NCBI GenBank assembly: GCA_034669905.1
Contig: JAXMOL010000016.1
Coordinates: forward strand, 32,001 to 96,000
From: Candidatus Hydrogenedentota bacterium
GTDB taxonomy: Bacteria; Hydrogenedentota; Hydrogenedentia; Hydrogenedentales; JAEUWI01
Direction of reading: 5' to 3'
DNA: 64,000 bases
In this document: piece after piece, positions 38,358-40,937 of the stretch
How the letters are laid out: every line of letters begins with the position of its first letter
Numbering within the stretch: position 1 is the first letter of the stretch
Made by a program: the position numbers and the translations under genes
Notes under the pieces: model-generated
The model's input: only the letters and a program-made list of their open reading frames with translations
The model's database searches: none
Told to the model about the DNA's origin: nothing

Positions 38358-39680
38358 ATGAACCGTCGCCAGTTTCTCGTAACGACCAGCCTCGCCGCCA
38401 GCACCGTTGCCTGGGGCGCGCCCCTCGCCCCTGAATACCAACCCGCCGACCGCTTCGTCCTTTCCAACGCGGGCAGCGGGCGGGCCACGGCCTATTCGGA
38501 AACCAACAAGGTCGTGACGGTGAACGGCAAGACCCACGCCTCCTGGCTCGACGCCACGGCGGAGGGCTTCCGGGTCCGCATCCGCACGCTGGACCACAGC
38601 ACGGGCACCTGGTCCGAGGCCTTCGCCATCGGCGAGGGACAGGACAATCACGGCGGGCCCTCCCTCACGGTGGACAGCAAGGGCTATCTCCACGTGGCCT
38701 ACTATGCCCACAACGGCCCCATGCGCTACCGCCGCTCCCTTCGACCCAACGACGCGTCCGAATGGACCCGCTATCTCGAGGTGGGCGAAGCCCTCTCCTA
38801 CCCCACCCTGGTCTGCCGCGCCGATGACACCCTCCTCCTCACGGGACGCAGCTACCACAAGATCGAGCCATGGACCTGCCAGCTCTTCACCAAGGGCAAA
38901 TCCGGCACCTGGGATGAAGGCCGCGCGCTGCTCCAGGCGAAGGAAACCGGCTACGCCCAATTTATGGATGCCATGGCGTGGAGCCCCGACCACCAAACCC
39001 TCCACATGAGCTTCTGGTTCTATGGCGGAGACCCCGGCATTGGCAAGACCATCGGCTATCTGCAAAGTCCCGACGGCGGCACGACCTGGACGGGCCGTGA
39101 TGGCACGCCCGTATCCCTTCCCGCCAACGAAGACACGGTCGACATCGTCCATCGTATGGCACCCGACGCCACCGCCGGACTCCGGGGTTCGCGGTTGGCC
39201 GTTGCACCCGACGGTACGCCCCACGTGCTCTGGTCCGATTACGCACCACGCCCCCAGGCGGCCTGGCTTTCTCACCCCACACCCGACGGAACCTGGAAGG
39301 CCGTGAAGCTCAACACCTTCCTTCCCGCTGCCTTTCAAGATTGGGGACTCCTCACCCCGGGCGGTGTGACCTTCAATGACCAGGGCGATTGCTTCGTGGC
39401 GCTCACCTTGTTCAAACCCAAAGAACCCGCCGACCAGGCCACGGCCGCCCGTCCGGCGCAAGACATGGCCCTCTTCCGCTCCCAGGGCGGCGCCGCGAAG
39501 TTCAGTTGCGAAATCCTGCCCTTCAACGAAGCCACACAGAATCGCTGGCTCCCCAACCTCGAAGTGCAAACAGGCTTCAACACCGTGGCCGAGGGACCGG
39601 GGCTGATTTTCACCGAAGGGGAGCGGGGCGACGGACTGGACGACGTCTTGAACAACAAAGTCCACTGGTTGCGCATGTAG
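38358..39680 (+). CDS. Tat-exported BNR-repeat (BNR_4-like) beta-propeller protein
   Basis: MNRRQFL twin-arginine signal; DNHGGPSLTVDSKGYLHV; SPDGGTTW Asp-box. Confidence 0.88.
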   Translation: MNRRQFLVTTSLAASTVAWGAPLAPEYQPADRFVLSNAGSGRATAYSETNKVVTVNGKTHASWLDATAEGFRVRIRTLDHSTGTWSEAFAIGEGQDNHGGPSLTVDSKGYLHVAYYAHNGPMRYRRSLRPNDASEWTRYLEVGEALSYPTLVCRADDTLLLTGRSYHKIEPWTCQLFTKGKSGTWDEGRALLQAKETGYAQFMDAMAWSPDHQTLHMSFWFYGGDPGIGKTIGYLQSPDGGTTWTGRDGTPVSLPANEDTVDIVHRMAPDATAGLRGSRLAVAPDGTPHVLWSDYAPRPQAAWLSHPTPDGTWKAVKLNTFLPAAFQDWGLLTPGGVTFNDQGDCFVALTLFKPKEPADQATAARPAQDMALFRSQGGAAKFSCEILPFNEATQNRWLPNLEVQTGFNTVAEGPGLIFTEGERGDGLDDVLNNKVHWLRM

Positions 39681-39727
39681 GAACAGAACCGGCTGCCGCC
39701 AAAGGCACTCCCTTCACATACCCACTA

Positions 39728-39759
39728 TTGAAACTGGGTTCTCATTATCATATAATGAG
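39728..39759 (+). promoter_or_regulatory. Sigma-70 promoter with overlapping palindromic (Fur-family-like) operator
   Basis: TTGAAA-17 bp-TATAAT; perfect inverted repeat CTCATTAT-CAT-ATAATGAG at 39741-39759. Confidence 0.75.
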
Positions 39760-39777
39760 TCAAGTCCCGGTGAAACC

Positions 39778-39874
39778 CGAAGAAGTCTGGCCAGAACCCG
39801 CTTATCGCATGTCATGAGCGAAGACACCGGTGCGCAGCGGCCCCTACCGAGGTCGTGTCTAAGCAGACTTCTCG
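39778..39874 (+). ncRNA. Candidate structured 5' leader RNA (three-way junction)
   Basis: P1 AGAAGTCTG/CAGACTTCT; P2 CGCTTAT/ATGAGCG; P3 AGACAC/GTGTCT with inner CGGT/ACCG. Matches no riboswitch consensus I recognise. Confidence 0.4.
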
Positions 39875-39892
39875 TGAAAATGGTGGAAAGTC

Positions 39893-40471
39893 ATGTCAAC
39901 CTTTAAGAATTGTCTGGATACTGTTGGCGCCTGTGCGTCCTTGCTCTGCATGGTCCACTGTCTTGCCACGCCCCTGCTCCTGGCACTGCTGGCAGGCAGT
40001 GCACAATTTGGCGGCTCAACAGCGGCCATCGTAAACGCCGCCCCCGTGGCGGAACCTGGCACCGTGCCAACCTGCGACCATCACGGCCGTGCGCCCGAAG
40101 TGCGGTCGGGCGAAACCAGTTCGTGTGCCACGGCATGCGAGACCGAGGTGGAGGAAGCGTCCCACACGACCTGCTGCAGTGGCACGACCGACACCATCGT
40201 CCACGCGTCTTTCCTCGGTATGGCCTTGCCCCTGGGCCTGTGGGCGTGGGTGATCGGCTATAAACGACACGGACATCTGGGCAGTGTCGTCGTCGGTGGA
40301 GTTGGCCTCGTCCTGCTCACCGCCGCCCTGCTGTCAACGCAGCTGCATAGCCCCTGGCCGGTGGAACAACCGCTTACGGTGTCGGGAAGTCTTTGCATCC
40401 TGGTCGCCCATTGGTGGAATCATCGACGCCGTATCTGCTGTCACGGGCCGCACCCGAAACTTGCCGAATAG
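39893..40471 (+). CDS. MerC-domain membrane protein with Cys/His-rich insertion
   Basis: LDTVGACASLLCMVHCLATP, GYKRHG, LVAHWWN. Confidence 0.85.
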   Translation: MSTFKNCLDTVGACASLLCMVHCLATPLLLALLAGSAQFGGSTAAIVNAAPVAEPGTVPTCDHHGRAPEVRSGETSSCATACETEVEEASHTTCCSGTTDTIVHASFLGMALPLGLWAWVIGYKRHGHLGSVVVGGVGLVLLTAALLSTQLHSPWPVEQPLTVSGSLCILVAHWWNHRRRICCHGPHPKLAE

Positions 40472-40485
40472 GGCGTTGGCACACG

Positions 40486-40648
40486 CCGATCCCTGCCCGC
40501 CAGCGAAGACATCGTTCAAGGCATGGGCCCCACCCCAAGCTCGAAGTACAAGCGGGCTTCAACACCGTCGCGGATTTACACCGAAGGCGCGCGGGGTGAC
40601 GGACTGGACGACGTCTTTAACAACAAGGTCCACGGGCGCCGGATGTAA
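40486..40648 (+). pseudogene. Degenerate duplicate of the 3' end of the BNR gene (39511-39680)
   Basis: Encodes LEVQAGFNTVA / TEGARGDGLDDVFNNKVHGRRM* versus LEVQTGFNTVA...TEGERGDGLDDVLNNKVHWLRM*, with an internal deletion. Confidence 0.85.
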
Positions 40649-40711: not shown

Positions 40712-40794
40712 GTCATTCCCGCGAAGGCGGGAATCCAGTGGGTATTCACATGCACCTGGCCGCGTTACTGGATCCCCGCCTTCGCGGGGATGAC
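40712..40794. repeat. RS3/REP-like doublet
   Basis: GTCATTCCCGCGAAGGCGGGAATCCAG...CTGGATCCCCGCCTTCGCGGGGATGAC. Confidence 0.9.
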
Positions 40795-40937
40795 GGCTGT
40801 GGAAAATTCGTCGGCACACTAAGCGGAAAAGAGCACGGTGAAGAGAGCCCTTTGTGCGCTCTGCGTTCTTTGAGGTCGAGTCAATAAGTCTTCATTCGCG
40901 TTAATTCGTGTCTATTCGTGGTCCACACCCGTTGTAC

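Follow-up and report, generated by a model that had tools for sequence, protein, structure and literature searches.

A Zur-type operator probably controls a MerC-family gene in a Hydrogenedentota bacterium, and the fold in its leader is likely incidental

Results

The window (the whole stretch of DNA analysed, 64,000 nt) carries a gene for a MerC-family membrane protein behind a sigma-70-type promoter and a long leader (Table 1). The earlier note had described a ~130-nt leader between a consensus promoter and the ATG, and the promoter, the GGTGGA, and the ATG were found as it had given them. Two sigma-70-type sites were found (0.6 expected in shuffles), and transcription would start near 39763. 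The description of the gene as MerC-like was also borne out, with a PF03203 match above the gathering cut-off (73.4 vs. 27.6 bits; Table 1). The window protein had the domain match of the MerC family, but its PF03203 domain was split in the alignment by a Cys/His-rich insertion, and no mer-operon genes were found among the eight neighbouring proteins scanned. Its nearest Atlas neighbours were MerC clusters (0.84–0.86; taken as a lead only). A PF03203 gene was present in 16 of the 135 genomes of the phylum.

Table 1. Features of the merC locus, in window coordinates
Feature	Position	Strand	Basis
Palindromic operator, putative Zur-type (Fur-family) site	39725..39748	.	znuA-trained matrix
Sigma-70-type promoter, TTGAAA-17-TATAAT	39728..39756	+	11/12 consensus bases
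Putative 5' leader, 130 nt	39763..39892	+	box 148 nt from ATG, 21–64 nt in eight other loci
GTGAAA, left 6-bp direct repeat, possible target-site duplication	39770..39775	+	same in both relatives
Reported fold, outer helix enclosing hairpins P2 and P3	39778..39874	+	neutral divergence, no covariation
GTGAAA, right 6-bp direct repeat	39874..39879	+	sequence
Putative RBS GGTGGA, 5 nt before ATG, outside fold	39882..39887	+	
MerC-family (PF03203) membrane protein gene, 192 aa	39893..40471	+	Pfam E 2.6e-20

Downstream of merC, window positions 40533–40647 held a 76%-identical, frameshifted copy of 39551–39679, the 3'-terminal part of the BNR-repeat gene that lies upstream, so that the promoter and merC form a cassette flanked by direct repeats. 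The copy was present in the sister genome G006 and was not found in the metagenome locus L013. The merC of G006 (locus L012) had a 22-nt frameshifting deletion at codon ~97, possibly a pseudogene or an assembly error. First and second codon positions were variable at 18 of 368 sites in merC, compared with 10 of 818 in the neighbouring BNR gene. With this frameshift and this variation, the promoter-merC cassette looks dispensable. A REP-like inverted-repeat element with dozens of genomic copies lay at window positions 40712–40800, and accounted for weak FtrB matches in Rfam.

The earlier note had proposed a repressor-controlled promoter, and a palindrome over the -35 box, common to znuA and merC-family promoters, agreed with this at the level of sequence. 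Its core, TGA-N10-TCA (39729–39744), overlapped the -35 hexamer, and elsewhere in the phylum the same palindrome was found at promoters of PF03203 genes. A matrix was trained on znuA promoters alone, all from other genomes; of 29, 12 fitted the strict pattern and supplied its box sites, one of them a secondary site. With it, the window operator scored 25.3 and ranked third of 7,441,526 positions. The two sites above it were C11:52667 and, next, a site on C9 between a Fur-family gene and znuABC. The same matrix scored 22–31 at 7 of 11 other merC-family loci and 13 at one, and three were boxless; this count does not include the four mercury-operon-type merC loci (L027-29, L031). Conversely, a merC-box matrix built from other genomes found a site of at least 7.6 in 21 of 30 znuA upstream regions (the best 30 of 65 matches), and placed the window operator fourth in its own genome. 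The box lay 148 nt from the ATG in the window, compared with 21–64 nt in eight other boxed merC-family loci; with such short leaders, the family is regulated elsewhere without any RNA of this kind. Scanning with a 19-bp Fur consensus told little, giving 615 matches at 13 or more matching positions.

The site at C11:52667, highest by matrix score, preceded an unannotated 405-aa ORF that shows no clear tie to metals; the fifth, C3:178953, preceded a SAM-dependent methyltransferase gene. Both genes are possibly unusual regulon members. Bacteroidota MerC-family genes (L089, L090, L093, and L094) had a different upstream palindrome, TGCAAC-N3-GTTGCA, which we take to be a putative Zur box of that phylum. 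At L094, a P-loop GTPase-like gene followed the MerC-family gene.

A Fur-family gene was divergent from the boxed znuABC operon of the window genome (C9), whose ZnuA matched Pfam with E 5e-53. The genome had three Fur-family genes, none of which passed any NCBIfam cut-off; for the protein adjacent to znuABC, the lowest-scoring model was that for Zur (E 3e-4). We infer by gene position only that this protein is Zur. A boxless homologue of the window protein with the same Cys/His insertion (L033) lay in an operon after CobW_C (COG0523-type) and zinc-ribbon genes.

The full-length leader was found by blastn only in the window genome and G006 among the 135 phylum genomes. A covariance model of the structure in the earlier note returned the same two genomes and one chance-level match, in G039 (21 bits, E 0.28), which was rejected as it kept little primary sequence. 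Blastn and nhmmer found no other copies of the leader in the window genome. The metagenome scan yielded one further leader locus, L013 (2 loci from 71 candidate stretches), and the two relatives, G006 (L012) and L013, were ~93% identical to the window leader. The search of sequencing runs covered 4 of the 20 listed; one contig, of run X7, spanned the leader and had the same alleles as the relatives. A scan of GTDB gave 11 loci, with the leader in none except the known sister, and a protein search gave 3 matches among 1386 candidates. Upstream of other merC-family and znuA genes, the leader model found nothing convincing (26 + 10 loci, 25 merC-family). Across these searches, the leader turned up only in two genomes from a single genus and at one metagenome locus.

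Two resemblances of the leader to other sequences were rejected. Its 5' end resembled the leader of the genome's own znuA (AAGTCCC..GGTGA); the resemblance was set aside because the znuA leader of the sister genome was without it and the RNA model found nothing in nine znuA loci. The sequence GCGGCCCC, considered as common to other merC leaders of the genus, had no model match. The 64-nt merC leaders of sister species (L015-L017) had a short GC-rich hairpin with G-U variation, absent in L018; this hairpin is unrelated to the window fold.

The three-way junction of the earlier note stood in part. All 26 base pairs that it named were complementary. In the ensemble of the putative leader (39763–39895), pairing probability was 0.92–1.0 in 8 of the 9 pairs of P1, 0.92–0.97 in P2, and 0.95–0.96 in inner P3, but 0.06–0.07 in outer P3 as drawn (39822-27/39855-60). 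The minimum free energy structure was also a three-way junction, but with GTGTCT paired with AGAAC (39793-97). The nine perfect base pairs claimed for P1 held in the window sequence but were peculiar to its strain, with C at 39867 in both related loci and in two sequencing-run contigs. The outer helix consisted of imperfect inverted arms of ~18 nt (39778–39795 and 39857–39874).

Folding z-scores of trimmed versions of the element were -1.82, -1.65, and -2.0. Over the whole leader, z was -0.71 in the window sequence, and positive in the relatives (+0.30 and +0.39). By z-score, 11 of 250 random GC-matched genomic 97-mers folded equally well or better, and a perfect stem of at least 9 bp was found in 23 of 1500 random genomic 133-mers. 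The excess of stability over chance was only mild.

The earlier note had seen no likeness to the consensus of the NiCo, yybP-ykoY, cobalamin, fluoride, TPP, or Moco families, and Rfam scans of the window leader and of L012 and L013 likewise gave no match over the leader to these or any other families at E ≤ 10. The weak matches returned were unrelated and all outside the leader.

Conservation was compared across three full leader sequences, ~93% identical, and one run contig; with three near-identical sequences, the test for covariation was weak and of limited depth. Against either relative, the fold had 9 substitutions in 97 nt, no different from the rate at four-fold sites in the two genes that flank it, the neutral reference (32/334 and 34/338; Fisher p = 1.0). 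Over the whole leader, substitutions were numerically fewer than at four-fold sites (9/130; p = 0.47), and among the three sequences nothing varied within 35 nt of its 5' end or 25 nt of its 3' end. The box and promoter (39725–39756) had no substitutions in 32 positions in both relatives (p = 0.09 alone). Among the 11 variable sites in the P1 span, stems (6/52) did not differ from unpaired positions (5/40; p = 1.0). Pairs 39786-39867, 39799-39820, and 39823-39859 were broken in the relatives, and 39827-39855 also in G006. Two further stem changes turned A-U into G-U, and there were no compensatory changes. Two-sided changes were found in none of the 26 pairs, and RNAalifold found covariation in none of 36. 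The long outer helix persisted in the relatives with one pair lost and two gained, and the inner junctions differed between their folds. Homologous leaders, as far as three near-identical sequences allow, thus diverged at the neutral rate and without the covariation that the earlier note had proposed to look for.

No plus-strand intrinsic terminator was found. In the three sequences, the cost of opening the RBS changed from 2.6 to 3.5, from 4.5 to 3.7, and from 4.7 to 3.3 kcal/mol (+0.9, -0.8, and -1.4 kcal/mol) when the 3' strand of P1 was forbidden to pair. These small shifts differed in direction, with no consistent coupling to P1. Neither a terminator/antiterminator nor RBS sequestration was thus found as an expression platform.

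Searched by tblastn as a possible relic of a protein-coding gene, the leader gave no convincing match. Elsewhere in the window genome, three boxed promoters (G000 C60:9962, L120:263-526; C43:5260-5640 minus, L122; C60:32248, L121:749-1168) were followed by small His-rich ORFs ending in RGPP. Two of the three had CXXC ~42–43 residues before RGPP, and one passed the DUF2946 cut-off. These three ORFs are apparently CruR-like arrest ORFs under a Zur-type box, with two-layer control.

Discussion

The locus is probably explained by a Zur-type operator that represses a MerC-family gene, with the fold in the leader being unconstrained, incidental, and no sensor of a ligand. The Fur-family protein linked to znuABC, as Zur, would bind the palindrome over the -35 box and, when loaded with zinc, would block RNA polymerase at the merC promoter. 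Zinc starvation would free the promoter, and the MerC-domain protein then made may help in zinc uptake or trafficking. The leader hairpin would be passed through and switch nothing.

The locus is like Zur-repressed promoters (znuABC, yciC/COG0523), as the available parts of PMC6103462 and PMC2770081 present them, in its palindromic AT-rich box overlapping -35. It is also like them in that znuA genes throughout the phylum have the same box before them, a Fur-family gene lies beside znuABC, and a merC-family gene follows a COG0523-type gene in a relative. Zur boxes often overlap -35 (PMC6103462, in part) and COG0523 genes are often found after Zur sites (PMC2770081, in part). It differs in its core, an even-spaced TGA-N10-TCA of 16 bp, compared with the 9-1-9, 7-1-7, and 23-bp Zur forms given in the accessible portion of PMC6103462. 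The same portion requires binding or reporter proof for membership in a Zur regulon, and window merC would belong to one by a sequence criterion, its box being common to zinc-uptake promoters and overlapping the promoter.

Reading of the operator by another Fur-family protein, with iron, manganese, or peroxide and not zinc as the signal, is improbable. The genome offers two further candidates among its three Fur-family genes, the operator is presumably Fur-like in composition, which we count in favour of such a protein, and Mn-type models also pick up the cluster-9 ABC binding protein at scores under the cut-off. Against this, the best-scoring NCBIfam models of that binding protein are AztC and ZnuA, the box sits between the znuABC operon and its divergent regulator, and sites of the other regulators scored low (10.6 for the PerR-like gene's own; 1.5 at the locus of the third). 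A small upstream ORF (39815–39907; 30 codons that extend over the start of merC), or a remnant of a CruR-like arrest peptide, is the least credible candidate for the acting element. Its frame is open in all three leader sequences, and the His-rich ORFs ending in RGPP do start other box-bearing promoters of the window genome, a likeness to CruR/DUF2946, which PMC9426467 describes, in the part available, as a post-transcriptional layer of metal control before metal genes. In that part of the source, such ORFs carry CXXC, with RAPP/RGPP at the C terminus; in six-frame translation, the forward frames of the window leader encode neither, nor a signal peptide. By inspection, moreover, changes in the upstream ORF are mostly non-synonymous, no RBS-like sequence was seen before it, and no frame had a protein match.

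A metal- or cofactor-sensing riboswitch, the main proposal of the earlier note, or a protein-binding leader, would be a young or lineage-restricted cis-regulatory RNA forming a second layer on top of the repressor, and this is very unlikely. The leader has no Rfam match, P1, P2, and inner P3 dominate the ensemble, the outer helix is held in the relatives through different pairs with two changes from A-U to G-U, and the fold lies upstream of a metal-related gene and immediately before the RBS. The proposal is not supported by the comparison: the fold changes at the neutral rate, its stems are unprotected, none of the 26 pairs covaries, its inner junction varies between strains, and the element is missing from the other merC-family leaders examined and was not found outside the two genomes of one genus and the metagenome locus. 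Neither a terminator nor an anti-RBS switch was found, and in the only other genome with the leader merC is frameshifted by the 22-nt deletion. A fold present only in near-identical relatives, changing at the neutral rate and losing pairs, is likely not a riboswitch. It is like the czcD (NiCo) riboswitch in that a junction of several helices lies in the leader of a membrane gene related to metals (PMC9389577, in part; see also 10.1101/2025.08.02.668262). However, the metal sites of czcD lie at a four-way junction that is conserved across genera, according to the available part of PMC9389577, and the window fold is three-way and unconserved, with no Rfam match and no expression platform. It is similarly hard to credit that a new, narrowly distributed RNA sensor lies behind the Zur box, in strains too close or a cassette too decayed for covariation to appear. 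The long leader may have its own origin, compatible with Zur control: tentatively, and with less than even likelihood by some way, the ~98-nt fold could be a miniature inverted-repeat element, now decaying, that inserted into a leader once short, its outer helix a relic of the terminal inverted repeats. The inverted arms of ~18 nt are imperfect, and the matching positions kept differ by strain; the 6-bp direct repeat GTGAAA brackets the fold; and with the fold removed the distance from box to ATG would be ~50 nt, inside the 21–64 nt of the eight other loci. However, the element is single-copy in the genome, the arms do not abut the direct repeats, the arm pattern gave scattered, unrelated matches in 18 of 135 genomes with a control similar in kind and no copy family, and viral contigs gave 0 matches. 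A search for an empty site found none, since among 15 genomes of the family the adjacent BNR gene is present in the same 2 only.

With repression by a Zur-type operator as the preferred reading, the boxed promoter common to znuA suggests zinc acquisition rather than mercury resistance. In the literature searched, no report was found on MerC with a riboswitch or on PF03203 with zinc, and none linking MerC-domain genes to Zur, a link that supplements and RegPrecise-type databases may hold. None was found describing a Zur box in Hydrogenedentota.

Conclusion

The riboswitch candidate is to be dropped from priority lists. If an RNA sensor did lie behind the Zur box, it would mean two-input control of a MerC-domain metal-uptake protein. 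The gain that remains is a likely Zur-type box for the uncultured phylum Hydrogenedentota, together with comparative evidence that places MerC-domain genes outside mer operons in zinc-starvation regulons and not in mercury resistance.
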